Positions 4,365-46,331 of a stretch of DNA of 57,107 bases are shown here, piece by piece. Where the stretch lies: assembly GCA_001724265.1 (NCBI GenBank), contig MEDY01000402.1:1-57107 (forward strand). Direction: 5' to 3'. Numbering within the stretch: position 1 is the stretch's first letter; each line of letters starts with the position of its first letter. A program made the translations under genes and the position numbers. The stretch is from Rhizaria sp. SCN 62-66 (taxonomy: Eukaryota). The notes under the pieces are model-generated. The model did not search any database. It saw only the letters and a program-made list of their open reading frames with translations, and had not been told where the DNA came from.

Positions 4365-7300
4365 TTAAAGCGTCGCAACGGGCACTCCTGTCACGCCAGC
4401 GTCAGCACCACCAGCAGCAGTAGCAGCAGTCGGGGCAGCGCCATTGCCGTGGCCGTTGTCGCCGTCGTCGTCGTCGTTGGCGGGCGTGGCGCCCGCGGCC
4501 AGCGCGGCCTCGCTGTCTGCCGCCGCCGCCGCCGCCGCCTCTTCCGCGCGCGCGCGCGCTCTGGCAGCGACCGCAGCCGCGACGGCCGCGGCGCGCACCG
4601 CCGCCTTGCGCCGGGCCTCGGCCAACGAGGTCGCGGTGACCGGCGGCGGCACATAGCCTGGCGCGCGCTTGCGAGCTTCGTCGGCCGCCATCTCGGCAGC
4701 GAGCGCGGCGGCGGCGTCGGGGCCCAGGGCCTCGGCGGTGGCCGCGATGGCGGCGGCCTCGGCCTCGGCCTCAGGGTCCGGCTCCGGCGGCGGCGGCGGC
4801 GGCGGCGCGGGCCCCGTGCGCGGCAGCTCCCACGGCGCCGGCTGCGGCAGCGCGGCCTCGAAGGCGCCCTGCAGGAGCCACGCGTAGTCCTCGGGCAGAT
4901 CCGCCTCCACGGCGTCGTTCACGCACGCGAACAGCTTGCGCCGGCCCGCCGCGGAAGACAGCCCGTACGCGGGGGTCGACGCCGCCGACGGGGCCAGCAG
5001 CGCTTGCACCTGAGAGAGCGAGTATGAAAGCAAAGATAAGAGGTAACAAGTGAGGTATATGCGCATTTTTTTAATAAAATGAATGAATTTACAGAAAAAA
5101 TACACAAGTAAACAATAAAACCATATCATTATTACCACATAAAAACCAAATTTGTCGTGACGATTTCGCGTGCGTACCTGTCGCAGCAGCGCGCCGGTGT
5201 CCTTGAGGTGCCTGTCGGTGACGCCCAGGTAGGCCGTCGAGTCTGCGTGCTGCGGCGTGTAGGCGTGGTAGAGCTGGCGGAACGGCAGGTGCACGTGCGT
5301 GAGCGCGGCACGGCCCAGCGACCATTCGAGCAGCTGGTCGGCCGTCATGACCGCGCCAGCCACTGCAGCGCCCTGGGCCGCCGCGGCCGAGGCGGCGGCG
5401 GCAGTGGCGGTAGCCATCTCGCGCGTGCGCCGCCGCAGCGCGCCGCGCATCAAGATGAGCTCCTTCGCTGCGGCGGCATTCCCGGCTTCGGTGGCGGCGC
5501 GCATGAGCCGCTCCTGCGTGGCCGGCTCGCCGGGCGCGTCGGGCGCGAACGCCCGCCACGGCGACGCGCGCAGCAGCGCCTCAAGCTACGCCGGCTGCAG
5601 CAGCGCGGACAGCATCAGCGGCATGCCGTCGTCGCCGCGCGCCGGCAGCGTGGGCGTCGCGGAGAGCGCGGCGTGCCAAGTTGACACGCGCAGACTGTCC
5701 TCGTCGTCGTCCTCCGAGACCTCGAAGCCGGCGTCGGCGTCGTCATCGGACGCAGCAGCAGCGCTGTGTCCGCCGCGGCTGCGGGGTCGGTAGACCGAAG
5801 GATCTGAGGCCGCGGCGGGGGTTCCGGGCTCCACGCAGGCCATGTCCCACACGGCCCGCGACCGGCTCGCGCTACTAAAGCCTGCCGCAGAGACGTTCTG
5901 GGGCCTTGCCGAGCGCGCGCGCATGGCCCGGCCGAGCGCGGCCTCGAGCGGCGAGCGGCACAGCGGGCGCGGCAGCGGCGCGCGGAAAGGCCAACGCGCG
6001 GCGCGCTCGCGGGCGCCGTTCTTCGAGTGCATGATCGGCGGCCGCGGTGTGAAGAGCTCGGTCAGCAGAGAAACCACCTCGGTGCCGCGCAAAACGCCGT
6101 CGCAGTCGCCGTCGTGTGACGCGACCATGGCGTGCGCCAAGGAACGCACGGACGGGTGCCTGGGCGAGAGAAGAGAAATTGTTATGAAGACTAGATGTGA
6201 GTACTTTGATTTTAGTGCAATAATACAAATGAAACTCATACAAAAATAAACATAATACTTTTATCTCGATATCGCGAAACACAATCGCGACAAATAGACT
6301 TTTGTTTTCATTGTCGACGCAAACTTCAAGTCGCTTCCCACTCACTGGCTGGGTGCGGTGTGTTATTATGTGAAGCATAGAGCACGTACCTTGCGCCGAG
6401 CGTGAAAGCGGCGAGCATGTAGCCGAACTGCAGGTCGTAGGGGTCACGGAAGCGGTGCGACTCCTGCGCCGCGTACTCGTGGGGCAGCAGAGACTGCAGC
6501 CGCGCGTAAATGTGTTTGTTGCCGACCTGCATTGGATAGCACAGAGCAAATGTGGGGGCAAGATGATATGATACACAAGTGAGATGGAAGTCAAATAGAA
6601 TAACACGGCTAATTAACAATATAAAACAGTGCGAATAACCAAAATACACTCACTTAGTTTCAAATACACCACATTTAATGTCTCAAAATCGTCTAATAAC
6701 ACGCAACGCACCTGCGGCTTGTGCGGGACGGGCATGCGGAGGGGTGCCGGGAGCAGCTTGCGCATGAGCGTCTGCGAGCGCGAGAGCACGAACATGTAGC
6801 TGGCGTCGGGCGGCCGCGCGGCGCGCGAGGCGACGAGTTGGCTGTGGTTGAGCGCGCCGGTGGCCGACAGCGCGGTCCACCAGCGGCCGCGCACGGGGGG
6901 AACGGCGTGGTTCACCGTGGGCGCCGCCGCCGCCGCGTCCACGGGCCAACGCCACGGCGGCAGCGTCGAGATGGGCGCCGCCGCGGCCGCGCTGGCAGCG
7001 GCGAACGCGGCCGCAAACGCCGACGCGGACAGAGACGTCGCCGCGTTGTCGTGGTTGTTGGCGCTACTGCCGCTGCCGCTGCTGCTGTTGCTGCGGCGCT
7101 TGGCGAGGGGCGTGAGCGACAAAGGCAGCGCCTGAGCCCGCACGAGACTGCTGAAGCTGTTCTCAGCGGCCTGGATGCTGTATCTGGCACTGCTCGTGAG
7201 CCCGGCGCTAACGGGGGCGCGGACGGAGGCGTCGGCGTCGGCGTCGGTGTCGGCAGTTGTGGCAGCCGTAGCGAATGAGACGTGGTGACGACTCTTCCGA

Positions 7301-10300
7301 CCGCTGCGACCGCCGTTGCCGTCACTCCCTTCGTCGTCGTCACCGTCGTCGTCGTCTTCGTTGTCCTCGTCAGTCTCCTCCCTGCGGTAGCCGTGCCTGT
7401 AGACACTAGAGCTCGAGGAAGTCTTCGCATTTCCGCTCACACTCGCCGTACTCTCGACACTTACACGCTCGGCACTTACCCCGTCTAAGGGGTCGCTCGC
7501 GCCGGCAATCACCGCGTGCATCGGCAGCGCGGCGGCCTCCTTGGCCTTTCGCCCAGACTTCTTCACACTGCTGCTGCTGCTGTTGTGGAGGTTGAGTCTG
7601 GCGCCCGCGCCGGGCCCCAACCCACCGCGGTTCGCGGCGTGCGTGTCCCGGTCATGGCGGCGCCCGCGGCGGCGCTGATGGTAGCCCAGCCCCAGCACGG
7701 AACCCGTCCACGCGGCCAGCGCCTCGCCCAGTACGCGCCGCGTCGACAGCGGCACGTCCGGCCGGTCCTCGGTGAAGGGCCCCGCCGCCAGTCGCACCGG
7801 TGGCGCCGTCGCCGCGTACGCCGAGTGGGTGGGAGAGTCAGGGTGGCCAGCCGAGTCGCGGTGGCGGCGGCGGCGCAGGTTGACCTCGGTGCTATCGCTC
7901 GACAAGTCGCCCTCCGCATCCGCCGTCGCAGCAGCGTCAGTTGTCTCGGCGTTGTCGTCCTCGCCGTTGACGTAGCCGAGGTCGTCGATGACCGCGAGCG
8001 CGGCCGGGACTGTGGCGTTGACCCACTGCGTCTCCCGGTCCAGTGTGGTCTGCGAGAGCGGCCGCATCGCGCCCGACGCGCTGGGCGCCGAGGCCAGCCC
8101 GACGCGCACTCCCCACGGCTCCAGGTCCCAGAGCAGCGCGGCCAGCACCTGCCGCAGGCGCCGCTGCTTGAGCAGCAGCCGCTCCGCGCGCGCCGCGACC
8201 AGGTGCCGAAGCGCCCACCGCCGCGCGCGCGCCGCCTCCGCGGGCGCGGCCTCGGTCGCGGCGCGCGCGGCGGCGCGGGCTAGGCGCTCTTCCTCGGACA
8301 CAGGACTCCTAGCCTTGCTACCGCCGTTACCGTTGCCGTCGTCTTCCTCGTCGTAGTCGTCGTCGTCGTCTTGCTTGGCCTCAGCCTCGGCCTCGGCCTC
8401 GGCGGCGGCATCCGCGGCATCCTCTGGATCATCGGCGACAAAGTTGGCGCCACTCTGCTGCTGCTGCTGGATGTTAAAGCCCCCAGCAGCAGCACCCGCA
8501 GCAGCAGCAGCAGTGTTTGTGGTGGTGGCGGCGGCAGCAGCCGTGTTGCTGTTGCTGCCGCGGCGGCGGCGGCGGCGGGGCCCTGCGGAGCGCGCGGCCG
8601 CAACGGCGGCGGCGTCGAGGTGGGGGCGAGCGGCGCGCAGCATCTGGCTGAAGGTGAGCGCGCAGTCGCCCCTGTCAAAGGCGCAGGCCGCGTCGTCGCA
8701 CGCGTCGTCGCAAACGCCGTCGCCCAGCCAGGCCACGGGGCAGCCGGGCGCGCAGAAGAGCGGCTCGGGCAGCTGTCGCACTGGATCCCTCCCGGTGGCG
8801 AAGGCGAAGCCGTGGTTAGAGCTGCTGTTGCTGCTGCTGCTGCTACTATTGCTGCCGCTACCGTTGTTGTTGTTGTCATTGTACTCTTGGCTGAGACGGC
8901 TGAGAGGGAACGAGTAGATCTTCTCCCCCTGGCCGCCGAAGCCGTCGTCCACCGCTGCGTGCTCGTACTCGAACGGGTTGCGGCCCGCAGCAGAGCCCTT
9001 GGCGCCCGCGAAGGCCGCGGAGCCGACGGCGCCGGGCGCGGTACGGCCTGCGGTGGCGAGCGGCAGGTGAAGCGCGGCCGCCGCGGCCAGCCGCCGCAGC
9101 ACGGGGTGCGCGCGGCTGCCCGTGACGGGGGGTAGCCCCTTGCCCAGCCGCAAGACCGCGGCGTCGGCGTCGAGGCTGGGGTCCGCCACGCTCGCGCCCG
9201 CGAAGTAGTACGAGCCGTCGCCGCCGTCGCTGCGGCCGCCGCCGCCGCTGCTGCTGCTGCTGCTATCACTAGCAAACTGGTTGTTGTTGTTGGTGTTGTG
9301 ACGCTTGTTGCGCCGGCGCAGCGCCCTGATCCGGTCCGGGTCGTGGCTGCCGCGGGCGAAGGCCCCTGCGGAGTAGAAGGGCGCGTAAGAGCCAGTGTAC
9401 TGCCACAGCGCGGGGGCCGGAACAGCCGCCGCCGCCGCCGCCGCCGCCGTGGCCGCCGCCGAGGCCGCGACGGCGGCCGTCGAGGCGGCGGCGGCGGTCT
9501 TGGCCGCGGCGACGGCCTCCGGCGAGTCGGGGCCTCCGGGGCCCGCAGCGGCGCCGTAAGCCACAGAGGCCGCGGCTGCGGCGCGCTCGTTAGCGGCGGC
9601 GGAGGCGGCGGCGGCGACGGCCGCGGCGGCGGCGGCGGCGGCCCTCTGCGCGCCGTTGGCGCTGCTGCGGGCGACGTAGGCGGCATCCGTGGCGAAGACG
9701 GTGTCGAGGTTGGGCGGCGCCGAGGCCGCGCCGGCGACGACGGTGGCCCAGGCCAGCTCCGAGGCCGTCAGCGGCGGCAGCTCGAAGCGCGGCAGACGCT
9801 GCGCCACGTGAATGCCATGCTGCTGGTGCTGCTGGTGGGTGGAGTAGGCCGACGATGAGGACGCTGTCGCGGTCGCGGGCAGCCCGCGCGTTTGCGCGGG
9901 CGGGACGGTGGGGCCCAATGCGAGCATCATGTCGTAGAGCTCCCAGGCCGCGGGCGCGCGGAGGTAGTTGCGCTCGCAGTCGCCCAGGTCCCAGAGACAC
10001 TCGGCCGACATGCACGCCGGGTGGCAGGCGCCGTCGCCGACGAGGTTCGCGTCGCAGCCGGCCGCGCAGCCGCGCAGCTCCCAACGCGAGCGCTCGAGGC
10101 GCAGCCCGGTCGCGGCGTCGAAAAACTCGGCCTGCGGGACTGGCCGCGAGAAGAAGACGTCGTCGTTGACGTAGACATAGTGGTCCGAGAGCCCCGGGAT
10201 GCGGTGCAGCGCCGACTCGATCGCGTTGGATGAGAAGGACGGCGCGTCGAGCGCGGGGCGGCGGAAGATGGCGCTGTGCGGCACGACCGTGACGGCCGGG

Positions 10301-12001
10301 TGCGACGTGTTAAGCCACGTGGGCGTCTCGCCCGACGTCACGAGGAAGATGCGGCGCACCCACGGCGCGTGCTTGAACACGGAGCGCATCGAGTACCGCA
10401 GCTCGCCCAGGTCGCGGAAGCGGTGGTCCTGCAGCGAGTGCAGGTCGGGCGCAGGCGCCGGGTAACCCTTGACGACGCTCTGTGCTCAGGTTAGGTTAAC
10501 ACGGGTGCAATAGTATTGCAAGGGAAATGTGTTAAGTGAGTACTTTACGACCGGATATAAACATGAAATAAAATATAGATCATTGCTTGATAAATAAGGA
10601 GAAATGTGATGAAAATATAATAAAAATATCTTGTTTCGTGTTTACCTTGTAGTTCTTGAGCGACTCGATGGCGAGCGGCCGTGCGGTCCTCACCGCGGGG
10701 TCCGAGCCGTTGATCCAGGTGTAGACGATGTCCATGGGCTCGACGCAGGCGGCCAGTCCGTAGCGCTCGCCCGAGATCGAGACCCAGCCCGCGGAGAGCG
10801 CCGCCGAGGCGGGGTCGGCGACAGCGGCGGGCACGGCGACGGCCGCGGCCGAGGCGCGGAAGCCCGGCCGGTACACGACGGCCCTGAGGGCGCGTAGGCG
10901 GGCCGCGGCGGCCGCGGCGGCCGCGGCGGCCTCGGGGCCCGACAGCAGAGCCTGTGGCGCAAAGACCGGCGAGACGCCCGCGGCGGACTCGGCGGAGGCG
11001 TTGGCAGGGGCCCGCGAAGGTAGGTACTCGCCCTCGAAGCGCGCCGCCGCGGGTGACACGCCCGCGGCCACGGCAGCCGCGGTGGCGGCGGCGGCCGCGG
11101 CGGCGTCGGCGGCCGCGATCTGCGCCAGCTGCTCCGGGCTGTGTCTCAGCGCCAGCGCCCCGCTCTGCCCCAGCTGGCTTTGGCCCTGCTGTTGCTGCTG
11201 TTCTTGTTGTTGCTCATCGAGCTCTAGCAGCGCGGCGGCGGGCGTGTCCGCCGGGAAAGAGCGGCAGCGCGGGGCGGCCAGGCACTGCGAGCAGAGCGGG
11301 CGCGGCAGCCGCAGCGCCGAGGGCCCGTAGGACGGCCCCAGCGGCGACGCGGCGGAGGGCGGGAGCCGGGACCAGGCGTGCGGGCCGCGCATCACGCCCG
11401 TGTGCGTGTGCCAGAACACGGGCAGGTCGCCGCCCGCGGGCAGCAGCGGCGCGGGCGCGGCGGGCAGCGGCGGTGGCGCCACGCAGCGCTCCTGCTGCGG
11501 CGCGGGCAGCGCGAAGAGCGCGGCCGTGGCGTCGCAGAGCGGACACACGTCCTGGTCGCGGCGCCACGAGGCGGGCAGGAATGACAGCACGTCGGTGGGC
11601 GACTGCGACTGCGGTGGCAGCACCGTGACGTTGTTGTGCTTCGTTGGGGTCGCTGGAGGCGTCGTTGTCGTTGTTGATGTTCCCGATGGGGAAACACTGA
11701 TGTTGCCGCCAGTACCAGACTGTTGGTACTGATGCGACTGTGATTGCTTTGATGTCGTTGTCGATTCAGATAGGGATTCAGAGAGCGACGGAAGGGCTGA
11801 AAGAACGACGAGTGAGTCTAGGGAAGGCGGGGCGGGGCCAAAGCCAAGGCTGGCGCCGAAGGCTGACGTCGAGGTCGAGGCAGCGAGGAGCAGCAGCGAG
11901 GCGGCAGCAACGCCCAGCAGCACCAGCAGCAATGCGCTGGGGCGCTGGCAGATGCCGCCTTCCCGGGAATCAGGCCGTTCCCAGGAAGGGTCGTCGAGCA
12001 T
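4365..12001 (-). CDS. GNPTAB: Stealth-family GlcNAc-1-phosphotransferase alpha/beta-like protein (~2,295 aa) with one in-frame TAG at 5586-5588; exons 12001-10646, 10479-6712, 6526-6390, 6159-5178, 5009-4365
   Basis: Domains appear in the expected order: N-terminal hydrophobic anchor, CR1 (PMDIVYTWINGSDP), CR2 (RFRDLGELRYSMRSVFKHAPWVRRIFLVT...FSSNAIESALHRIPGLSDHYVYVNDDVFF), two LNR/Notch repeats (GDGACHPAC..C.WDLGDC; WLGDGVCDDAC...FDRGDC), CR3 (PHKPQ...SHRFRDPYDLQFGY), EF-hand (DGDCDGVLRGTE), CR4 (KLFACVND...FEAALPQPAPWEL). Four GT-AG introns have consistent phases. Stop is TAA. Confidence 0.88.
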
Positions 12002-13226: not shown

Positions 13227-16200
13227 TTACTTCACTCCACGTGCGTGGTTAGAAGCGTGATCGAAGCCGCTCATCACGTCCTCAGGCGAGATGATCACTG
13301 ATACAAATGAGCCCTCGCGCGACGCCCGCACATAAGCTGCAGCTGCAGTCCGCAGCGCCTTGGCATCCCAACTTCCCGCAGCAACCGTCGCACCTGCACT
13401 AAGACCGCTGACATCGTCGTCTTCGCCGAAGCTAAACAATTCGTCCTCGAACTCCTCCACAACCTCTTCGCTCTCATTGACGGATGCTATGGCACTCTGC
13501 TTCGAGTCTAAGCGCGCCACCGCTGTTGCAGCCACGAGGTCGAGTTTCTTGTCCACACTCAGGTGTCCTTCTCCAGCGACTGCAAAAGTTCCCTCACTCG
13601 CACCCCTCCCAGCGCCAGCCTCCGCTTCAGCTTCATCGCGCGCGCGCTCAGAGAGCGCGTCGAGCGCGTCAGTGACTGCGACAGGGAGCTCATCCAGCGC
13701 TGGCAACAGTGCACGCGCAAATCCGCCATAGCGCGGCGTTGCGGCGACGGACTTGACATCGAACACGGCGACGGCCACAGGCGGCGCACCCAGTGCCGGG
13801 AGCGAGTCGAGTGACACAGTGCGCGCACGCGCGGGGCCGTGAGCCGCCACAGCGACGGCCGCGGAAGGGAAAAACGCCCGTGCCGCAGCGGCCACGGCCG
13901 ACACAACCGCCCGCGCTGCTGCAGCAGCAAGCCCGCCGCCAGCAAGCCCGCCGCCAGTACCAGTGGTGCTACTGTTTGAGTTGGCGTTGAGCAGACGCGG
14001 CGGCAGCGGCGGCAGCTGCAGGACAAGGGCGACGCGTGGAGGCCAGATGACGGGCAGTGCGCCAGACGCAATCCTGACGCCGCTGCTAGCAACGGCCCCA
14101 GTCGCAGCGGTGGTGCGCGCGCTCGAGCTGACTGCCTTCGGAGCATCCGTATCCGTATTGGCCTCCGCGTCAAAGTCGTAGTCATAGCCGTCGGTGACAG
14201 GCTCGGCGACTGTTGCGGCGTCAACAGGCATCTTGGTCTTGTAGAGAGAATTTGCGGCGGTAGCGCTCACAGTGACCGCAGGGAACGCGACGACAACAAG
14301 ATCACTTGCGCCCGCACTTGTGCTCGCAGCGCTGTCGTTCGAGTGCGCGTTGTGACTGTTCGCGTTGTTTTGCGTGCGCGGGTGACGCTTGGCCCCGGCT
14401 TTATCAGTCTTCGCCCTGCCCGCGCTCGCCCTAACGCTGGTGCTTGCGCTGGCGTGCGGCGGCGTGGGCGTCTGCGGTGGCGCGAGCACCGCACTCAGCG
14501 CGGCCTGCAGAGAGAGCGAGGCCCAGAGCTCGGGCGCGGCCGCCGCGGCGTGCAGCCAGCGCGACAGACGCTGCCGCTCCAGCTCCGCCAGCAGCAGGTC
14601 AGACTCGGCCGCCAACAGCGACTGCGACTGCACCGGTAACGGCGACTGCGGCGGGGAACGCGGAAGGGCAGGAATGGGGCCGTCAGGGAGGGTGAAAGAG
14701 GGCAGCACCAGGCGCAGCGCCAGCATGCTCTGCTGCTACTGCTGCTGCTCAGCGCGAGTGCTGCTGTCGCTCTCGCGATCCTGGCCGCGGGCGCGGTGAG
14801 CGTCGTGCTGGTCCCAGTCAAACAGCGCGTCGCTGTCGTCGTCGGACTCGCCAGTCTGCGCCAGCGGGCGTTGCTGCAGCTGCAGCAGCGCCAGCGAGCC
14901 CAGCAGCCCTCCCAGCCGCGCCTCGGCCTCGCTCACCGCCTCACTCGCACCCACATTCAGACTCGGATTCGAACTCGAATTCGTGCGGGAGCGCGCGAGC
15001 GCGGCGGCGGCAAAGGTCAGCGCCGCGGCTTGCATGCGCGCGCCCAACACCACCAGCGTCTCGGCCGCGCCCGCCACCGCCACAGCACCGGCACCGGCGC
15101 CAGTGGCCGCGCTACTGACAGCGCGAGAAGGAGTGGGAGCATCAGAGTCGGAGCCGGAGTCGGCGCGAGCGACAGTGCCGGCAACGCCGGCGGAGGCCGT
15201 GACGGCGGCGACGTTGTTTGCGCAGATGGCGGGCGCGAGAGGGTGCGGCGCGGCGAGCGCAACGGCCAGGCCCCGGAGCGCGCGCCGCAGGGGCTCCGCG
15301 GCCGCCAGCGCGGGCCCCCGCAGCAGTCGCGGCATCGGCAGAGACACCGCGGTGACCACGCCGCCGCCCCCGCCGCCGGCGCCACTGCCGCTGCCGTCGT
15401 CGCTGTTGTCAGGCGCGTTGTTGCCGCTGTGGCTGCGCGGGGAGACTGGCACGCGCAGGAGCTCGCCGTTGACGCTCACGGTCACGCTGCCGCCGCCAGC
15501 TGCGCCGACTTGCGAGTGCGACAGCGAGTGCAAGTGCGCGTGCGGGTGTGAATGACGCATGTGGAGCTCGCGGCGGGACAGCGGCGACAGCAGACGGCCC
15601 GGGCGCGGCGCCCAAAGTAAGGCCTCGGGGAGCAGCGCCAGCGGCACCGGCGCCGGCTCGGGCGGCCACTGCAGCAGCGGCGGCGCGGCCGCGGCCGCGG
15701 ACGGGGGTCGGGACTGCGACAGAGACGGGGGCTGCGACGGTGATTTGAGGTGAGATTTCTTGTTGAGGCGAGCTTTGTGGAGATCCTTAGCTTTGCTGTG
15801 GTCTTGTTGCTGTTGCTGCGACAGATTGAAGCGCAGCACGTCAACGGCAGCCCCCGCGTTGGCCGCGCCGCTGCTGCCGCGGCCGCCGCCGACATAGTCC
15901 ACAAACGCATCCGCGCCGCCGTCGTAGCCCTCACTGTGGCCATGACCGTGAGCGTGGCCGTGGGCGTGACCGCGGGCGTCGTCGGCGAACAGGGGCCCGC
16001 GGAGACTGGCGGTGGCGGTGACGCGCGAGGTTAGCACAGCCAGCCGCCGCGCGGCGCCCAGCAGTCCCGCCACCGCAGCCGACGCCTGCAGCGGCGACAA
16101 CACGGGCGCAGTCAGGCGCGACGCAGACTGTGCCAGCTGCGACTGCCACAGATGTGCCTGCGACAGACGCTGTGACGGCGGCGGCGGCGGCAGCAGCAGC

Positions 16201-19200
16201 GGCGAGGGCGCCCAGTGCGCGCGCACGCAGTCGCCGACGCTGTCGAGCACGTCCCCCAACCACGGCCCGCGCGGCAGCGCCCGCAGCGACCACAGAGCGC
16301 CGTCAGCGGTGCTGCAAACGCCGGTGTTGTTGCTGCCGCTTGGGGCCGGGCTGGAGCGCATCGCGCGCACAGTGGCGTCCGCGCACAGACGCGTGGCCGC
16401 GGCCCACATTGCGGGGCCGTCTAAGTGCCCCTTAGACGCGTCTAAGTAGCCCTGGTTGCGGTGCACCGCGGGCGCGGCGAACCAGAGCGACTCGAGGTGC
16501 CTGCGCACGCGGCGCACGGCCACCGCCGACAGCGGAGACAGCGGCTGTAACTGCGGCAGATAGAGCGAGAGCAGAGGCGCGGGCAGCACACGGAGCAGCG
16601 CCAGCGCGCCGGAGTCGCTCGTGCCCGAGTCAGTCCTGTGAGCGCCAGCGCCAGCGCCGTTGTCGTATGACTGCGGCTGCGGCTGGGCGTGCTGGATCAG
16701 GGAGGGACAGGGCAGGCCGAGGCTGCGGGCGGCGGCGGGCAGCGCCAGCGCCAGCGCCAGCGCGGAGCCGCCGCCGCCAATCGCGACAGCAGCACTCGCA
16801 CGCCCACTTGCACTGACACTGGCGCTGGCGTTGGCGGCGGCACTGGGACGCGACTTCTGCTTAATCTCATGCTGTTGCTGCTGCTGCTGCACAAAGAGCG
16901 CGGCGGCGGCGGTGTCGTTGAGCAGAGCCAGCTCCAGCGCACCCAGTCCCCGCAGAGACTGCTGAGGCTGAGACTGTAACTGCAGTTGAGACTGAGAGTG
17001 TGAGTGCGAGAGCAGCAGCGCGTGCGCCAACGGCGGGGCCAGGACCAGCTGCGCCGCAGCACTCGCACTCTCGTTGTTGATGTGGGTGACCGTGAGCAGA
17101 GCGCTGGCGACCGTAACCCGCAGCGCCTCAGCGGCGGCGGCGGCGCGGCAGGGGGCGCCGAACAAGTGCGCAGCCACCCCAGTCGAAGCGGGCGCTGGCG
17201 AGCGGTCCGCAGCATCAAGCAAGTCCGAGGAGTCGGCGGCAGCAGCAGCATCAGCAGCGGCATGAGCGGCAGCAGCGGCGTCGGCGTCAGCGGCGGTGCT
17301 GAGGACCAGCGGCAGCGCCCGCTGCAGCAGCAGAGCGAACGCGGGCGTAACAGTTCCGCCCGCGGCGCCAGCAGCAACGAGGGTGAGCGGGAGGACTGAG
17401 CTGAACACGCGCACCGCGGCGACGACGCGCGCGTCTTGGTCGGCGACAGAGGCAGAGGCAGTGGCCCTACTATTTGCTGCTGCAGTTGTTGCTGCAGACG
17501 CTGACAGAGCTCGGTGCACTAAAGAGCGCGCGTGGTTGCGGGCCGCCGGGGTCGGCAAGGAGTCCACCAGCGTCGAAGTTAAGTCGCACTCGGAATAAGT
17601 TAAGCCGGAGTCAATGAACACAGCAGTCCCAAGCTCTTGCTGCTGCATTTGCTGCTGCTGCTGCTGGAGCTGCAGTGCGAGCGTCGCCAGCCGAGCGAGC
17701 TCGAGCGACTGAGCAGCGGTGACTGGCGCAGGCGCAGTCGTCATCGTCGTCGTCGCCGCGGTTGCAGCTGCGAGCGCGAGCGTGACAGCGCCCGCGTTGC
17801 TGCCGCTCTGAGAGGGAGGCAGCAGCCACAGCGGAGGCAGCCCACCGGCACTGTCATGGCCGCGAGCGCGAGCGCTAGGGTTCACGTGAGCGTGACTTTG
17901 AGTGTTCATGCTGATGTCGGATTTGGAGTAAACGGCAGCGACTGCGAGCGCTACTGCAGAGACGGGACTAAGGGGCTGGCTGCGAGTGTAAGTATCACTT
18001 AGACTCTCATACAGCGCGAGCGTAAGGGGCTCAGTCGCGCTCGTGACCAACCCGTTCAGACCCTTAGACTCGGTGTAAGTGCCGTCTTTGTTGTTGTCGT
18101 AGCGCGCAGGCAGCCAGTGACTGGGCCAGTGGTGGTGCGCGCTCAGAGCGTCTAGCGTGGTACTTAGACTGCTAATGGGGGCATTTAGATCCCCTGAGTG
18201 CTGAGAGAGGGCGGTCTCGTAGAGACCACTTAGATCCTTCTCCATCTCAGACCCACTTACACCGCACTTGTCACCGCTCTTGCTCGATGCGGCGACAAAT
18301 GCAGCGGCGGCGGCGGCAGAGGCCGAGACCGCTGAGTCTGTCACAGCCGAGGCAGACAGCGGCGTCATTAGCGCGACAGTGCGGCCCGCAGCCTCGCTGC
18401 CGCCGCCGCTCCCGCCTTCGTCGCCGTCGCCGTTGCCGTCGCCGCGATTCGTCGCAGTCGTGGCAGAAAGCAGCAGTGGCAGGCCTGCGTTCGCCGCGAA
18501 GACTGAAGCGAGCGCGCCGTTGGCGGCGGCCCGCGCGCGCGCCGCCGCCGCGGCCGCCGCCACAACCGCCGCCACACTAGGAGACTGCGACTGCGCCTGC
18601 AGTAGCAGGGAGCGCAGCGGCCCCCGGGCGGCCTCGCAGACGGCGGCGGCGGCAACGGCAATCGCGGCGTGGGCATCAGCACTCGCGCTCGCATCGGCGT
18701 CATACCGCAGGTTGACTGCAGCAGCGTCAGCGACATCGGTGACGGCATTCTCATTCTCGCATACATCAGCAGAGGTTTGCAGCGCACTCTGCAGCGATAC
18801 AACAGCTGCCTGCAGCCGCAGCCGCGCCGCCAGCAGAGCGGCGTCTCCTTCCAGTGCGTACGCAAAGACGGCGTCGTCTATGCCGTCTCCGCTGTGCCCA
18901 TCGCTGGTATTGCCGCCGCCGTCTGCGTCGTCGATCTCTGTGCCGTTTAGCGCGCCGTTTCGCAGGCGCGTGCCGAGACGCCGAGTCAGACGGGCCTCGG
19001 CCGCGGCCAGCGCGACTGCGGCCGCGACGGCGGGAACGGGGGGGTGCTTGGCCTGTGTAAGGGCTACGGCCAGGGGGTACTTAGAGCTGTTTGTGAAGGC
19101 CGCGACAAGTGCGTCCGCCTCCACCGCCGCGGCCGTCATAGCAGCAGCAGCAGCAGCGGCAGCAGTGTCAGCAGTATCGGCCAGAGCAAGAGCTGGGGCG

Positions 19201-21233
19201 CGAACAGTCGTTGTCGCAGCAATCAGGGCTTTCGCGGCCGCGGTCGCAGTGGCCAGCACCTGCAGCAGCAGGGCCTTGACGTGCCGCGGCGACACGAGCG
19301 CGCCCACGGTCACGAGGGGCGGCCTGACTTCACCGACACGCGGATTAACATCGAGCGCGGCGGCCACGTGAGCCGTGAGCGCGCGCAAAAGCGAGACTGC
19401 AGTAACAGCGTGACCAATCGCACACGCAGTCGCCGTCGCCGTCGCCGTCGTGCTTGTGTGGCGTTGAGCGTTGTCGGTGCTTAAAGAAGGAATCAAGTCG
19501 AGGTCGCCTGTGTTCGCTGTGTGATCACAAGCTTGCTTGATACTATTGCCAGCCGTGCTATTGTTCGTAATGCTGTTCAGACCTGCCGTCATCTGTCCCA
19601 TATCACTGACTAAAGTCCCCGGAACATCAGCAGCAGCAGCGGCCGCCGCGGCGACGAGCGCCGCCGCCGCCGCGGCCGTGGCATGCAGGCTGGCGGCCGT
19701 CACACGCGCCGCCGCCGCCGCAGCGGCCACGGCGGCGGTGGGCGCGCCGGGGCCAAGACTGACGACGCCGGTCCTAACAGTGCTCACGGTGCTTACCGTG
19801 TTTGCAGTCACTCTGTCGCTTGTAGAGCTATTCGAGCTATTCGAGCTATCATTAGCGTTACCGTTGCTGCGGCTGCTGCTGCTGCTGTTGTTGTTGTTGT
19901 TGCTGTGGGCAACTGTGAGCTCGAGGAGCCTGAGCGCAGGCGCGCGGTCCGCCGCGGCGCGCCCCCCCGCCCCTTCACTATGGGGGGAGGCGAGCGCGCG
20001 CAGCAGCGGCCACGCGACGGGAGCCGCCGACCGTGGCAGCAGCGGTGGCGGCCGCCGCCACGACTGCTGCCGCCCCGGCTGTTGCTGTGGCTGAGGGTGT
20101 GCCTCCACACGTTGCAGTTGTTGCTGTTCCTGTTGCTGCGAGAGGCTGGGGTTCGCAGCAGAGTCAGCGCCGAAGTCTAAGCAACTGCTGCTGCTGCTGC
20201 TGCTGCTGCCCGTTTTCACCAGTTGCGACAGCGCCAGCGGCTAAACTCCAGAGGAGTGACCGTGATCAGCAGCCAAGTAATCTCCGGCCGTGCAGAGGTC
20301 GCCGAAAGCGCGACCACGATTGCTCAAGGCAGCAGCGGCAGCGGAGTCAAAATAATCGTCACCATCGTAGTATTCAGCAGCGTTGTTGTCTTTGCTATAA
20401 TTGTCGCCGAAATCATCCACAAAAGCATTGCCGTCATGATCAATCCCATTGTGATGTTTCGTAGCGGCACGAATATCGTTATCGTTGCTCAACACAGGCA
20501 GGCTCGAGGCGTATCCACGCGCAGGGTGGGAGACAACCCTTACACTGGCAGCGGAGTCTCGTGGGTAGCAGTTCGAGTTAAAGCTCGAGATAGAGCTCAA
20601 CATTGAGCTCGAGCTAGTGTTCTGACGATGTGAGCTGTGACCAACGTCACTGCCGCCGCTGCTGCTGCTGCTGCTGCTGCTGAGGCTGCACCTGTCATTG
20701 GCGCTGCGCATGCTGCGAGTGGAGCAGGAGCTGGAGCTGGAGCACAAGTCGGAGACAAGGGCGGCGGGTCCAGCAGCGCGCGAGCTAAAGCTAAAGCTAG
20801 AGCTAGAGCTAGAGCAGAGCTAGAGCTAGGAGCTGGATACCCCAAATGCTGAGTTGCTAGGGGCGGAGGCGGAGACAAAGCAACACCACTGCGTCTGCTG
20901 CTGCTGTAGCAGTGCGCTGTGTGCGTGCGGGTGCGCCTGGGCGCGCGCGAGGCTCGGGGGCAGCGCCGGGCCCGCCACCGCAGCAGCTGCGGCCGAAGCA
21001 GCCGCCGCGACTGCAGCCGCTGACGTTGTTACCACCGTCGCCGCGGCCGCCGCCGCCGCTGCCGCTGTCGCAGCGATAGGGAGGCCCGGGGGCAGCGAGG
21101 CGCGGGGGGCTGCGCGCTGAGCGGCCACCGCGCCTGCTGCGGCGGCGCGGGGGACGCGGGGGGCAGCGGCGGCGGCGGCGGCGGCGGCCCGCGCGGCGCG
21201 GTCTGCTGCGCGCCGAGTCGCTGCTCGGTGCAT
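13227..21233 (-). CDS. Large, apparently intronless protein of unknown function (~2,668 aa) with four in-frame TAG codons and a weak PX-like segment near the C-terminus
   Basis: ORF-track pieces 20826-21332, 20241-20747, 14736-20219 and 13227-14726 share one frame and are separated only by TAG (20826, 20820, 20241, 14736). There is no TAA/TGA until 13227. ATG at 21233 directly follows a CAG. 'PIPALP...ELERQRLSRWLH...PELWASLSLQAAL' resembles the end of a PX domain (low confidence). Confidence 0.7.
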
Positions 21234-21968: not shown

Positions 21969-24900
21969 ATGTCGCTGACCTCGGCCGTGGCCCGCAAGAC
22001 CCTGGCCGGGCTCCGTCCCGCCGCAGGTGCGTTATATATCCCCCCGAATCCCCCGTTTAGCTCCGATCTCTGGCCTTGCCCGATGCCACGGCCCACTGCA
22101 CGCGTCTTCCCGTGACTTCGCCAACGCTCACGCCGCGCTTCCTCCGCGCTCTTTCTTTCGCCTTTCTGCTTTTTTCCGCCCCCCTCTAGGCTCCGTTCTG
22201 GCCGCGCCCGCGCTCGCGCTGGCGAGCCGCGTCCCTGCCCACGCCCCCGCCGCCCCTACCCTCACCGGGCTTTCAGGACTTTCAGGGCTCTCTGCGCGCG
22301 CTGAGCTCTCTGCGCGCCCCCCCACCCCCAGCGCTTTCTCGCCGCTGCGGATGGCTGTGACGCGCGCCGGCTTCGCCACTGACGCGCCGGCCGCCGCCGC
22401 CGCCTCCGCCGCCGCCGCCGCCCACGCCCCCACGGCCGTCCCCGCCACGGGCTCCGGCTCCACGGCCGCCCCCGCCGCCTGCGCTGCCACTGCCGCCGCC
22501 GCCTCTGCGACCGAGAAGGCCGCCGCTGAGAAGGCCGCTGCTGACAAGGCCGCGACTGCTGTCACCAAAGATAAGATTCCCAAGCCCATCCTGAAGGGCG
22601 GCATCATCGGCGGCAGCAAAGACAAGGACGAGGCCAAGGAGGCCGCCAAGGAGTCCGGCAAGGACGCCGTGAAGGCCGACGCGACGAAGGATGCCAAGGA
22701 GGCGAAGGACGTCGCTGCTGCTGCCGCTGCCCCTGCTGTTGCTGGTGGTGGTGCGAACAAGGAGGCCAAGAGCGACGCCGCCGTGGCCGCCGCCGCCGCC
22801 GCCGCCACCGCGGCCGCGCACGCCGCCGTCGCCGCCTCGGCCACTGCCGCGCTCGCCGCCGCAGCCGCCCCCGCGGCCGCTGCTAAGCCCGCCGCCACTG
22901 CCGCTGCCGCTCCTGCCGACTCTAAGTCCACTGCTGCGGCGGCGGCCACGGCCAAGGACGCCGCTGCCGCTGCCGACGCCGCCGCTGCTAAGGATGCCAA
23001 GGAGGCCAAGGACGCGAAGGAGGCTAAGGAGGCTGCTGCTGCCGCCGCCAAGAAGCAGAAGCAGCAGGAACAGGAGCAGAAGGAGCTCAGGGCGCAGAAG
23101 GAGCGCGCGCTTAAGGAGCAGCGCGAAAAGGAGGAGGAGGACGCGCGCTGGGACTTTGACGACCCGAACATGCGCCAGTTCCTCGAGTGGGAGGAGAAGT
23201 TCCTGGCCGAACGCGCGATCCGCACGCGCGAGCTCATCGAGGCCGAGCTCGCCGCCACGGCCCCCGCCGTCGCTGCCACCGCGGCGGCCACAACCCCCGC
23301 CGCGGCGGCCGCGGCCACGCTCGCGGCGGCCTCGGCCTCTGCGGCGGCGCGGCGGCGCGCGCGCGCCAAGGCCGGCGTGGCGGCGAGCGGGCCCGAGGTC
23401 AAGGACGCGGCCACTGCGCTGCGGCAGGCGCGGCGGCTGACCGAGAAGCTGCTCGCGGGTGCCCGCAAGGCCGCCGTGGCAACTTGGGGGCTGTTGGGGC
23501 GGCTTGCGCGCTGGCTGCTGGCCGTGGCGCGGCACCCGGCCTCGTTGGGCCCGCAGCTGGCGAAGCTGGGCAGGCTCATCAAGCACGAGGCGAAGCACTA
23601 CTGGCACGGCACCAAGCTGCTCGCCGTCGACGTCAAGACAGCCACGCGGCTGATGCTGCGGCGCGTGCGCGGGTTGCCGCTCACCCGCCGCGAGTCGAAG
23701 CAGCTCACCCGCACGACAGGAGACATCCTGCGCCTGGTGCCCTTCGCAGTCATCGTCATCATCCCGTTCCTCGAGCTGTTGCTGCCTGTGCTGCTCAAGC
23801 TCTTCCCCAACATGCTGCCCAGCACCTACCAGACCAGCAGCGACGTCAGCTCCAAGGCGCGCGCCGAGCTCAAGGCGCGCATGGAGCTCGCGGAGATCCT
23901 CGAGGAGACGCTTGAGGAGGCCGCGCGCAAAAAGGCCGCACAAGCCAGGTACGATTACTTCAAAGCCAAAGTCAAATCAGGATGAGTATCTACCAAAATC
24001 TATATTTTTTTTCAATGAAAATTTCCTCTCACAATTTTATTTCTTGTTTTTGTTTTTGTTTCACTCAACTATCTATTTTAGGGCTAAGCGTGTCGCTGCG
24101 CAGATGGAGGCCGCCAACATCACCGTCTCCGAGGGCGCCACCGCCGCCACGGCCGCCACCGTGGCCGACGGCTCCGCCGCGCCCGTGCCTGCCGCGGCGC
24201 CTGCTGCGCCCGCGGCGAGTGCGGCCGCGACGGTGGCTGCGCACCTGGAGGAGGAGGAGCTGGACGAGGAGGAGAAGGCTGCCGAGCGCATGCTGGATCT
24301 GCTCAAGTCGGTCCACAAGGGCGAGCACGTGTCGAACCAGCAGCTGGTGGCCGTGGCGGCACTCTTCGAGGACAACGTGACGCTCGACCGGCTCGCGCGG
24401 CCGTATCTCGTCGCGATGTGCCGCTACATGAAGATCAACACCTACGGCACGGACGAGATGCTCCGCGCGCGGCTGCACAAGAAGGTCGAGGAGATCCGCG
24501 AAGACGACGCCGTGATTGAGGCTGAGGGCATCGCGAACCTGTCCCTGGCCGAGCTCAAGGAGGCCTGTCGCGACCGCGGCATGCGGTCCTTCGGGCTCAC
24601 GCTCGCCGGCTACCGCGCCAACATTGAGGCCTGGATCGACCTGTCCGTGCACCAACAGGTCCCCGCCTCGCTGCTGCTGCTGTCCCGCGCGCTGTCGATC
24701 TCCGAGCGGCCCACGTCCGAGTCCCTGCAGGCTGCGCTGAGCTCGCTCGACGCCGAGGCGCTGCAGGAGGCGATGGCTGACGCGGGGCTCGTCGAGGAGG
24801 ACACCGAGGAGCAGCTCGAGGCCGTGCTGCGCGAGAACGACGAGATCGAGCGCGAGGCCCGCGAGGCGCAGGACAAGGCCGTCCGGGCCAAGGAGGCCGC

Positions 24901-25135
24901 CGCGGCCAAGGCAGCAGTCGCCGCCGCCGCCGCCAAGGCCGCCGCCGAGGCTGCGGCCGCGGCCGAGCTTGCGGCCGCCGAGGCCGCGGCGGCGGTCGCG
25001 GCCGCAGCGTCCAAGACGGCCGCTGCCACCGCCGCCCACCACCACAGCTCCCACGGCCACCATGGCCACAGCCACACCAACACCAGCGGCAGCGGCAGCA
25101 GCGGCAGCAGCGCCAGTACCGGTCAGAACAAGTGA
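21969..25135 (+). CDS. LETM1: LETM1/Mdm38 mitochondrial inner-membrane protein; exons 21969-22026, 22190-23948, 24082-25135
   Basis: Signature sequence 'IKHEAKHYWHGTKLLAVDVK...LTRRESKQLTRTTGDILRLVPFAVIVIIPFLELLLPVLLKLFPNMLPSTY' and ribosome-binding domain 'TLDRLARPYLVAMCRYM...GTDEMLR...ELKEACRDRGMR...WIDLS...VPASLLLLSRAL'. The N-terminus looks like a mitochondrial presequence (MSLTSAVARKTLAGLR). Stop is TGA. Confidence 0.95.
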
Positions 25136-31264: not shown

Positions 31265-33455
31265 ATGTCCACCGAAGACATCTCCCAGCTTGAGGCTGAG
31301 CTCAAGAAGCTTTCCGTCACCGAGGCCCCCGCCGCCGCCGACAAGACTGATGGTGCCGCCGCCGACGCCAAGGCTGATGCCAAGGCTGCCGAGACTGCTG
31401 CCGCCGTCGACAGCACCATCGCGCCCGAGGACCACTCGATTGCGGTGCCGTTCGACCGCTCGATGCCCAGCTTCGCGCCGTTCGTGGAGGACCCCGCGTT
31501 CCTGGCTCTCGAGTACCACTCGCCCATCGCGCTCGTCAACAACAACTTCCTCCAGGTACGCGCGCGCGCACGAAAAGAAATCGCAACATCCCGCAAATAT
31601 ATTTTAATATAACGTGATATATATCTTTTATAACGTTGTACATTATTTTTATATTGATTTGAGCCGTTTATATGCCAGTCGTGTCACTTAAGTATTTTTT
31701 CTATAAAACTTGACTCACAAACAATCCCCCCGTTCATCTCGAATCCCCAAACTCGCCCCCTGCGTTCTCCTCATCCCCTCCCAGGACGAGCAGGCGAGGG
31801 ACAACTACGCCTCTGTCAAGGTGCGCGCGGCGGCCTGGGCGCAGGGCGCGGGCGTGACGGCCGAGATGGTGGCGGCGATGACCGAGAAGTACACGGCCCA
31901 CGTCAAGGCCTTCTGCGCGCAGGCCGAGCCGGCGTTCGAGCGCATCTTCATCCGCGACGGCGAGCGCTCTTTCAACACGCCTGTGCGCCGTACCGCGCTC
32001 TGCCACATGCTCACTTTCCTCCAGGTATGTCCTCCGCCACTTCGTAGCAACCAAATCGAAGCAGTCGTGTTTTAGCATGGCGATAGTTTGAAGGCATATA
32101 AGTTCGTGTTTTGAGTCTAAATTATCGTATGTTGTGAATGAGTTATATATATTTCATTTTAGTTTCGTTTCAATAAGTACTCATATGATGACTCTACATA
32201 TCATCTTGTATATCAATTTTATTTTTAACAGGCCACCACTCTCGAGAATGACTACCACCAGGTACGTAAAGCATCACTCATCGAAGTTATGACACTAAGT
32301 TATGACACTTCAAATCTATCAAATTTCTTAAGTTTATCAACATATATACTCCAAGTAGTAGTCTCTTCACAACTCACGCCACGCACTCCCCACATCTCAC
32401 TCCGCACACTTCTATCACACACACAGGGCCTGTCGATGATCGTGTCGTTCCTGTCGCTCTTCCTGGACACGCCGACGGTGCTGTGCATGGTCGTGGCGGC
32501 CAACACGGACCCGCGCTTCATGCCGGGCGTGTGGAAGTCGCAGTCGCTCTTTGCCGCCACCGACGGCTACATCTTCGACGCGCTGCTCGCCAAGCACTAC
32601 CCCGCCGTGGCGGCGCTTTTCGCCAAGTGGGGCATTATCCCCACGCTCTACATCGCCAAGTGGTGGTGCTCGCTCAGCATCCACGTGCTGCCCTTCCAGT
32701 CCCTCGCCGTGCTATTCGACCGCTTCTTCGCGCAGGGTGCCGGCTCGCGCGCGTGCTTCGAGCTGGGCCTCCTCGTCATCGGCTCCCAGGAGGGCCTCAT
32801 CACCAGCGCTAAGGCCATCGACCGCGTCCTTGAGTACGTCGAGTATCGCGATTCCATATCTCATAATAACAATGTCTTGATGAATGGTAGTTTTAGAGTT
32901 ACATTGAAGAAGTAGTCTAACTTTTCAGTTCTTTCTTTCTATTTCTTTCTTCTTTCCTTGTGTTATCTCTGTTATCTCATTCCCTTTGACTTGCTCTCTC
33001 GCAGGTACCTGCGTCTGGACCCCCTCGTGGCGTCCCCGGCCGCCATTAACGCGCTCGTCTACGGCCTGGACCGCATCGCCGCGCTTACGGCCGCGGGCAA
33101 GACGCCCGCCGAGGCCGAGGCCGCGCTGCTGGACGAGCAGCCCTTCCGCAAGACGGTCGCCGCGGCCGTGGCGTCGCTCGGCTCGGTCGAGGAGCTGACT
33201 GCCCTCCGCGCCAAGACTTATGATGAGAAGCTTCGCTCTGGCGTCGAGCGCGCCAACAAGGACTTCGAGGCGGACGCCGTGCCCGACTGCGCGCGCGCCG
33301 ACTGCGAGTCGCCCAAGGAGACGGGCGACTACTACTGCCTAGACTGCAAGAAGCACTTCTGCGACGACTGCGCCTACGGCAGCTGGCCGGGCCACTCGCG
33401 TGCTGAGCACCGCGTCATGTGCAACATGGACCTCGAGGACGAGGATCTCGAGTGA
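31265..33455 (+). CDS. TBC (Rab-GAP) domain protein with C-terminal B-box-type zinc finger; exons 31265-31555, 31785-32024, 32232-32261, 32427-32833, 33005-33455
   Basis: Arg-finger motif 'IRDGERSF', Gln-finger 'DYHQGLSMIVSFL' formed by a 30-nt micro-exon, and 'LYIAKWWCSL...LFDRFF'. The C-terminus 'CARADC..YYCLDCKKHFCDDC...H....H' fits a B-box. Stop is TGA. Confidence 0.85.
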
Positions 33456-34464: not shown

Positions 34465-35215
34465 GCGCGCTTACCGGCCGCAAAGCTGCGACAACCATGC
34501 CAGCTCATCTTCAGCAAGTTGCAATCGCAGTAGCCTGAGCGTTGGCGGCTGCAAAGCTGCTGTTGCGCCTGCTGCTGCGACCGCAACGCGCGTTGTCCGC
34601 CGGGCTGGCGTTGTGTGCGCACGTAGTTGCTCTTGGAGACAGGATGGACGCTCTCCATGACAGTGCAGAGCTCTGTAGGTGGCCTTGGACTTGCGCAGTT
34701 TGAGGGAAAAATGTGACAAAACGAATAAAATAAAGGCATTTTTATTCTTCCGTATTATTTTAGGTTGCTTTTGGATCGTACTCTGCATCGAATATTCTCA
34801 TATCTGTTTTGTTTATATTATTGTAATCCTCAAAATGGCGCTTGCTGCGGTCAAGCTTGACTGTGGACCGTCCACGCCAGATATAGCCGTTGGCCCGTCG
34901 GCTGGAGGCAGCAACGGCGTTTCACTAGTCGTTAGTATGAGGTGGATTGTCAGACGATTGTTTGCGATGGTTAGCTCATGTAACGGAAATCAGTTAGTAA
35001 AAGCAAATAGTTTCACTTTCATTAAATCAGATAATTTTATTATATTCTGCAAAAAGAGCGTTTTATACTGTCTTTTTCTACCTTAAAATCCGCGCATGGC
35101 AAGAGCATTCAAGCCTCACCCAACGAACTTTCTCTCACGCCTTCTGCTACTTTCTTTTCCATTTAATCATCGTCAATTCTTCTACCATCTGATGTCCCAT
35201 ATGCTAAGCTTCAGA

Positions 35216-45652: not shown

Positions 45653-46331
45653 ATGAACTGAGGGAGAGTTGGGAACGAAGGGTTTCTGGAGAGCAAAGCT
45701 TGGATGGGTCTTGTCGAGCTTTGAAAGAGGCATAGATAGGAGAGGAGAGCAGATGGAGAAAGAATTATAAAAGGAAAGAGCATTTATGCCATTTTTACTT
45801 TGTTTTATGACGCAATCAGAGAGTTTGACGATCAATCCATGCTGATATCGGAAGCTTGCGAACACGCAACAAAGCACCAAGCCGACTGCCCTCTGAGCGA
45901 GCACAGCAGCGAAACGTTTCTTCACATTTCAAAAGATAGATCTCGGTGTGGTCTGAGCGAGTTCAAACATGAAAACAAGGGTGACAATAGCATTACGCTT
46001 GCAATGCACAATTAGCTTGTTGTTTTACTTGAGTAGGCATAGTCTACTGAACTGTGACCCAGTAGATGATTCGTGAAAAGCTTGTAAAATGATTATTGTT
46101 CTTTTGATTGTTCTTTCGCAAATAATGTATTTCGGAGCAGTAGCATCTCTCTCGCACACATAGACAACGTAAGAATTCAGTCTTGACACATATATCGCTG
46201 CGCAAGTCTGAGTCGTTCTTTACACTTACAGTCGACTGCTGTGTAGCGAGAGCTTAGTTATTATACGATGCGAGACGCTTGCCACCCCTAAAGTTCTGAC
46301 ACAGCCAGTTAAGACAGAAACAGCGCGTCAC

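Follow-up and report, generated by a model that had tools for sequence, protein, structure and literature searches.

The question raised by this locus is whether a TAG codon that interrupts a short glutamine run in a long open reading frame ends translation there or is read as an amino acid and, in the latter case, as which one. The window, that is, the whole analysed stretch of 57,107 nucleotides, is contig C402 of a eukaryotic assembly (34.9 Mb, 714 contigs). Its minus strand reads GAG CAG CAG CAG TAG CAG CAG AGC ATG at 14750–14724. The TAG at 14738–14736 closes a stop-to-stop frame of 1834 aa (14736..20240), and past the TAG the same register continues as a frame of 502 aa (13227..14735). 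Counted from the start codon, these frames fit the two ORFs of 1,827 and 499 aa which the first-pass annotation had described as joined in frame by a TAG within a CAG run, and both the run and the junction were confirmed. The coding score supports the TAG frame on both sides of the site, and it is the best coding frame on each of them. If this TAG is decoded as sense, as we propose, both ORFs would encode one protein.

The letters of the TAG were compared with contigs from other sequencing runs. Contigs of run X4 (study P3, 14531–14846) and of runs X2 and X3 (14678–17509) span the site with no differing letter, and the TAG is therefore not an assembly error; note that X2 and X3 are equal in size and contigs and are perhaps one data set filed twice. 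No intron candidate that would excise the TAG was found, there being no low-GC GT..AG pair within 150 nt of it (local GC 0.69). The features discussed here are listed in Table 1.

Table 1. Positions of the TAG codons and genes considered in the analysis (window numbering unless a contig is named).
Feature	Position	Strand	Basis or remark
In-frame TAG at codon 2166 (proposed ORF of 2,668 aa)	14736..14738	-	Sense-codon reading
Short run E-Q-Q-Q-[TAG]-Q-Q-S in a low-complexity linker	14727..14750	-	Sequence
Proposed single intron-less gene, 2,668 aa, 4 in-frame TAG	13227..21233	-	ATG 21233 to TAA 13229-13227
Second in-frame TAG of the 2,668-aa ORF	20241..20243	-	
TAGCTC microsatellite with two more in-frame TAG (reading frame less secure)	20820..20828	-	
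Exonic in-frame TAG, adjacent Stealth-family (GNPTAB-like) gene	5586..5588	-	
tRNA gene, anticodon CUA	G000:C84:76008-76080	-	ARAGORN; RF00005

The TAG codons of the read-through ORF begin at 20828, 20822, 20243 and 14738 on the minus strand. Upstream of 20240 the coding scores are weak, and this part of the ORF is less certain. The predicted product is rich in Ala and Ser, and a search for a Pfam family returned no match to it. Matches in the ESM Atlas to its C-terminal 324 aa all scored <0.9 and serve as a lead only.

Throughout the genome, UAG is very likely a sense codon, and a rare one. The first-pass suggestion that a TAG can be tolerated as sense was thus borne out beyond the window by the counts of internal TAG, by the gene ends and by conserved domains. 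With a coding filter applied on both sides, 38 internal TAG, 0 TAA and 3 low-scoring TGA were counted in 256 records (1.0 Mb with overlaps, of the ~35-Mb genome), a count that leaves out the TAA- or TGA-bearing profile matches on C147, C520, C178, C66, C183, C78, C64 and C317. At loci not picked by their TAG pattern, the same filter gave 15 TAG, 0 TAA and 3 TGA, some of these 15 TAG sitting in kinase loci that had been retrieved for their TAG. The clear gene ends (n = 41) comprise 32 TAA, 9 TGA and no TAG, which rules out a TAG share of 16% (P 0.0008) and not one of 4% (P 0.19).

Conserved domains gave the same picture. TAG was the sole kind of stop in 9 of 142 kinase-domain matches; in four of these it proved to be a splice acceptor and the matches were dropped, and in the other five it is exonic. 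Exonic in-frame TAG were also found in an ASCC3-like helicase, an AAA ATPase, a small GTPase and an Smr-domain protein. Profile scans for DEAD, kinesin, SNF2, myosin, dynein AAA_6, ABC, AAA, Ras and tRNA-synt_1c yielded one new exonic TAG, that of the small GTPase, and the other TAG matches retrieved by these scans were rejected as splice acceptors or intronic. Candidate GluRS and GlnRS loci of this organism lie on C207 and C27. In an enriched sample, TAG makes up 34 of the 113,161 codons framed with confidence; incidental UAG sites are roughly estimated at ~1 in 8,000 codons, and no TAG was found in about 30,000 codons of dynein coding sequence. For the whole assembly, 500–1,500 UAG sites are estimated. 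Starting from the confirmed TAG in the window, the analysis arrives at a genuine nuclear code other than the standard one.

A tRNA gene with the matching anticodon is present in the assembly. A class I tRNA pattern with a CTA anticodon has 20 matches, of which ARAGORN called one as tRNA(CUA). This tRNA scores 58 bits against RF00005 and has a full cloverleaf; its MFE folding is not significant (z -1.5), the evidence being the covariance model. The gene lies downstream of a TAA-ended gene of eukaryotic type, and a T run comes after it. One copy was found, in searches that scored 63 of 506 tRNA candidates and used a CUA pattern for intron-less tRNAs. Compared with 39 other tRNA sequences of its own genome, the CUA tRNA is identical to tRNA-Glu(CUC) at 47 of 73 positions, to Glu(UUC) at 40, to Gln(CUG) at 33 and to Gln(UUG) at 27. 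Its acceptor pairs 1–5 (UCCCA/UGGGA) are those of both own Glu tRNAs, its T stem is that of Glu(CUC), A46 is as in Glu and the discriminator G73 is as in Glu(UUC); both own Gln tRNAs carry G1-C72 and U73. Of the 25 matches to the CUA tRNA listed for a phage collection, 11 are annotated as tRNA-Glu and none as tRNA-Gln; among plasmids a tRNA-Glu(UUC) matches best, and a viral scan with its 5' motif returned nine matches (7 Glu, 1 Gln, 1 non-tRNA). The CUA tRNA is only 64% like the own Glu(CUC), and the CUA tRNAs described for the ciliate Oligohymenophorea sp. PL0344 are 69–93% like tRNA-Glu (PMC10553269). As presented for E. coli, the determinants of GluRS are U11-A24, U13-G22:A46 and the lack of residue 47 (PMC9976931).

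These data allow us to assume that the Glu-bodied CUA tRNA probably inserts glutamate at UAG, with UAA and UGA still serving as stops. The tRNA may have been derived from tRNA-Glu(CUC) by a C36-to-A change, and glutamyl-tRNA synthetase would charge it via A46 and the acceptor and T stems of Glu type. It is proposed that the CUA anticodon pairs with UAG alone and UAA therefore stays a stop, and that UAG, served by a single tRNA gene, is consequently a poor codon held at its low frequency (~1 in 8,000) and largely confined to permissive positions, on the surface or of low complexity. The window TAG itself could be a CAG-to-TAG transition, that is, a tolerated Gln-to-Glu change in the poly-Q linker, or a GAG-to-TAG change.

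The residue was further evaluated from protein alignments. Of 117 homologs of the release factor eRF1, whose gene carries an in-frame TAG, 106 have E in the corresponding column, 10 have D, one has V and none has Q; the V is that of the nearest relative (84%), and the column is therefore relaxed in the clade. The TAG of the AAA ATPase falls on E in three of four distinct domain alignments, and the models PRK03992, TIGR01242 and CDC48 favour E over Q there by 2.7, 2.4 and 2.0 bits. At the site of a Sel1-like protein, the closest own paralog has E and two others have D and Q; at one kinase site, both paralogs have D. The ASCC3 column did not discriminate (N 23, E 23, D 14, Q 14; n = 150), and PDB searches gave no useful alignment for two further loci (L218 and L046). 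One TAG site has W in three paralogs, which indicates that TAG also arises from other neighbour codons in relaxed genes. Overall, two TAG sites favour E and two favour Q, the Q-leaning columns being variable, and the rest are permissive.

Pfam bit sums over six sites were E 455.0, Q 453.5, K 453.0, D 450.2, S 448.7, Y 444.0, L 442.3 and W 439.0, and thus Leu, Tyr and Trp are excluded and Glu is not separated from Gln; at two further sites Q leads by 0.1 and 0.9 bits. The neighbour context was more E-like than Q-like at 19 of 28 TAG sites. Its median at TAG sites is 0.51 with 68% positive, against 0.54 and 71% at true Glu codons and 0.03 and 51% at true Gln codons.

Glutamine, the residue named in the first-pass annotation, is an unlikely alternative, and that call is probably wrong. 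It would imply either that a tRNA-Gln(CUA) was missed or that GlnRS charges the CUA tRNA through U35; U35, U1-A72 and G73 are Gln marks too and can favour GlnRS in bacteria (PMC9976931). The TAG in the poly-Q run is real, and TAG also occurs in poly-Q at three other loci (L063, L166 and L179). In addition, the TAG of a CAMK-like kinase corresponds to Q in an 81%-identical ortholog, the closest one, and to Q 18, K 14 and E 3 in the top 52 homologs; in a ubiquitin-like piece, the TAG stands where the own ubiquitins carry Q. A naive-Bayes sum of the context likewise favours Q by 6.2, owing to three poly-Q sites. Against this, the sole CUA tRNA found is Glu-bodied, and no Gln-derived one came up in a non-exhaustive search, queries with both own Gln tRNAs giving identical copies only. 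The lack of Q in the eRF1 column and the preference for E at the AAA site also speak against Gln. The best fit to the context is a mix with about 0.6–0.7 E-like sites, and pure Q fits 5.7 log units worse.

The run that drew attention to the locus does not by itself show the residue, and the balance of the other evidence is toward Glu. Counting TAG in (CAR)n runs had been put forward as a test of Gln, but this count turned out to be confounded. The pattern CARCARTAGCARCAR has 462 genome matches, and in the first 30 of them the best frame is the +1 frame (poly-Ser/Asn) in 20, antisense in 6 and the TAG frame in 4. An acid-run pattern gave 21 genome matches, with the TAG frame best in five, four of which look coding; TAG is thus in frame inside poly-Asp and acidic runs too. 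Both kinds of run are near-neutral, and neither can decide the residue. As CAG-to-TAG is a transition, the easiest mutation, unconstrained poly-Q would be expected to gather TAG whether the codon means Gln or Glu, and the transition by itself would predict an enrichment of TAG in poly-Q.

The eRF1 gene, located on contig C63, is the only one found. Its TAG lies in domain 1, upstream of the catalytic GGQ, and the gene ends in TAA. An identical eRF1 sequence (L230), with 0 differences in 1626 and the TAG present, came out of a metagenome scan; it may come from the same sample and is not independent. The scan yielded no DNA of a close relative. The protein shows the changes T32S (0 of 117 homologs), M34V, G57S and T58K and retains E55, NIKS, L69 and S70. 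With these four changes, it has probably undergone a partial loss of UAG recognition under the glutamate reading. In Iotanema, Gly replaces T32, the residue in contact with the G of UAG (PMC5304391), and G57S and T58K are shared with Tetrahymena eRF1, T58K occurring also in ciliates with the standard code (PMC5304391 supplement 6). As a cause of reduced UAG recognition, T32S is unsupported by the corresponding human mutant, which is nearly neutral for termination in vitro (PMC3632111). The L69A change is described as affecting UAG slightly more (PMC4381064).

Ambiguous decoding should also be considered, in which UAG would be read mainly as Glu and in part as Gln, by mischarging or by the near-cognate tRNA-Gln(CUG), with residual termination by a near-canonical eRF1. 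The split between E-type and Q-type columns and the fit of a mixture to the context are consistent with it, as are the rarity of the codon, its absence from dynein, the single suppressor gene and the residues retained by eRF1. However, mutation from several neighbour codons at permissive sites accounts for the mixed columns just as well, and none of the 41 clear gene ends is TAG; ambiguous decoding is rather unlikely.

A related and similarly doubtful idea is that the in-frame UAG of eRF1 is a feedback switch in a code caught in mid-change, in which UAG means Glu, UAA and UGA are stops and a lone tRNA-Glu(CUA) competes with a near-canonical eRF1. Plentiful eRF1 would cut short its own synthesis, and scarce eRF1 would let the suppressor read the UAG. 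Bacterial RF2 is regulated likewise through an internal stop. At the observed rarity, the chance of a UAG in a housekeeping gene of 430 codons is a few in 100, and the codon that follows the TAG is the rare AAA. On the other hand, the Val in the nearest eRF1 relative speaks against this idea. No report of an in-frame UAG in an eRF1 gene was found in the literature search.

The standard code, with TAG as a nonsense mutation or leaky stop (a pseudogene, two genes, low readthrough) and the CUA tRNA as inactive or a weak suppressor, is already largely refuted and is very improbable. TAG is rare, many of its sites lie in fast-evolving genes and one gene holds three or four of them; at the window site, an ATG is found three codons downstream, and the RNA run X5, which has a small share, is without a listed contig that bridges the TAG. 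These points are outweighed by the TAG ahead of GGQ in the only eRF1 gene found, by the intact cloverleaf of the CUA tRNA and by the gene ends free of TAG. Nonsense mutations should moreover include TAA and TGA, of which 0 and 3 weak cases were seen against 38 TAG. An artefact (assembly error, TAG-bearing intron or wrong frame) is hardly credible for the window site given the agreement of other runs, the lack of an intron candidate and the Q frame being the best coding one on both sides, even though many TAG in profile matches are 3' splice acceptors and most TAG motifs in CAG runs are poly-Ser in another frame. Leucine was rejected, scoring 12.7 bits below E over the six Pfam sites (442.3 vs 455.0), and the variable loop of the CUA tRNA is short in comparison with that of a Leu-type tRNA.

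To place the organism, several markers were considered. The genome has GC-rich exons and AT-rich introns and 18 dynein AAA_6 matches (a dynein family of axonemal size). Its SSU rRNA is very divergent, with several long inserts, and the best named match of the CAMK-like kinase is Plasmodiophora brassicae (55%). Ser precedes MQIF in several ubiquitin genes, whose junctions are not assembled; such a Ser would fit the polyubiquitin junction insertion described for rhizarians (PMC6133090). The signature region of Rpl1 (SK/NK insertion) is missing from the assembly. This long-branch, GC-rich organism is likely a rhizarian.

Reassignments of UAG alone are described to Leu in the rhizarian exLh and three phyllopharyngean ciliate MAGs, to Gln in Iotanema, Hartmannula and Trochilia and, cited second-hand, to Ser in Scotinosphaera (PMC5304391; PMC11687900; PMC9161772). 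UAG means Glu together with UAA as Lys and UGA as stop in PL0344 (PMC10553269) and together with UAA as Glu in peritrich ciliates and Blastocrithidia (PMC11687900, PMC5304391, PMC12153298). No report of UAG as Glu with UAA kept as a stop was found in a literature search of mostly open papers, and an earlier mention is possible.

The closest parallel in decoding is PL0344 as described, where UAG is likewise read as Glu by CUA tRNAs nearest to tRNA-Glu and UAA and UAG are uncoupled. In contrast to PL0344, UAA is the main stop here (32 of 41), UAG is very rare and the genome is not AT-rich in the manner of ciliates; ten CUA tRNA genes are given for PL0344 (PMC10553269), whereas one was found here. 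Iotanema spirale, Hartmannula sinica and Trochilia petrani resemble this genome in that UAG alone is reassigned and UAA is the dominant stop, and T32 of eRF1 is changed both in Iotanema (T32G) and here (T32S) (PMC5304391). Unlike in these ciliates, where UAG means Gln, the decoding tRNA here is Glu-bodied; the portions of PMC5304391 and PMC11687900 dealing with them report no CUA tRNA. exLh (Sainouroidea, Rhizaria) shares the reassignment of UAG only and may be a relative, since the best named kinase match is Plasmodiophora and the SSU rRNA is very divergent here. However, Leu is excluded here, and L69 of eRF1, retained here, is replaced by Ala in exLh; the 384 UAG in 71 genes described for exLh are far more than here. 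In the peritrichs and Blastocrithidia UAG is Glu as here, but UAA is also Glu (or dual), whereas internal TAA number 0 in this genome.

Few nuclear codes treat UAG and UAA differently, and UAG as Glu with UAA as the main stop, if true, would be a new variant, one for which both the tRNA gene and eRF1 are known. It looks like a missing step before a code with UAR as Glu or with Lys and Glu. The rare UAG in a GC-rich genome offers a test case for codon capture versus ambiguous-intermediate models, and, in a probable rhizarian, a second change of UAG would indicate a further hot spot beyond the ciliates. In practice, annotation under the standard code splits several percent of the genes of this genome, that of eRF1 included.

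The CUA tRNA, the proposed reader of UAG as glutamate, shares exact matches of 20 nt in the D-arm and 18 nt in the T-arm with the tRNA-Glu(UUC) of an actinobacterial plasmid, where the latter sits in a tRNA array. The acceptor stem of the CUA tRNA is of the host Glu type. A bacterial contribution to this tRNA is possible. Elsewhere in the genome (L002-L030, L057-L064), identical tRNA gene copies are grouped in small clusters, frequently close to contig ends, and the assembly may therefore have collapsed or lost some tRNA genes.

The eRF1 gene itself contains an in-frame TAG, followed by AAA, a rare Lys codon; feedback control of termination through this TAG is possible. The nearest eRF1 relative (P0004, 84% protein identity) has T58K and M34V in common with the source organism and retains T32 and G57.

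Three in-frame TAG codons were found in one member of an expanded family combining a kinase with Sel1-like repeats (L050, L051, L052, L208), and one of these TAG columns is occupied by Trp in three paralogs. A further in-frame TAG lies in the Stealth-family gene of the window.

Location of the features described

Feature	Location	Strand	Remarks
Stealth-family (GNPTAB-like) gene	window 4365-12001	minus	CR1, CR2, LNR and CR4 matches across introns
TAG in Stealth-family gene	window 5588		in frame
LETM1	window 22351-25135		ordinary eukaryotic neighbour
TBC-domain protein	window 32289-33455		ordinary eukaryotic neighbour
MAP65/ASE1	window 35096-36259		ordinary eukaryotic neighbour
MSS51-like MYND protein	window 42827-45733		ordinary eukaryotic neighbour
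Methylmalonate-semialdehyde dehydrogenase	window 46591-48177		ordinary eukaryotic neighbour
tRNA sequences compared	L066:1489-1561 and L226:300-373
TAG in eRF1 gene	L031:1594-1596 (G000:C63:103463-103465)	minus	in frame
Ubiquitin-like piece	L191:1186-1965 (G000:C681)		in-frame TAG
SSU rRNA gene	L251:1501-5945 (G000:C706)		4.4 kb span

Ubiquitin (L189-L193, L200) departs from the canonical sequence to an unusual degree, and in several of its genes Ser precedes MQIF. The ubiquitin-like piece in L191 is surrounded by an AT-rich frame of 629 codons; it may have been captured by a mobile element. The SSU rRNA gene is also very divergent and is interrupted by several long inserts resembling group I introns; the first insert is large enough to accommodate a coding stretch.
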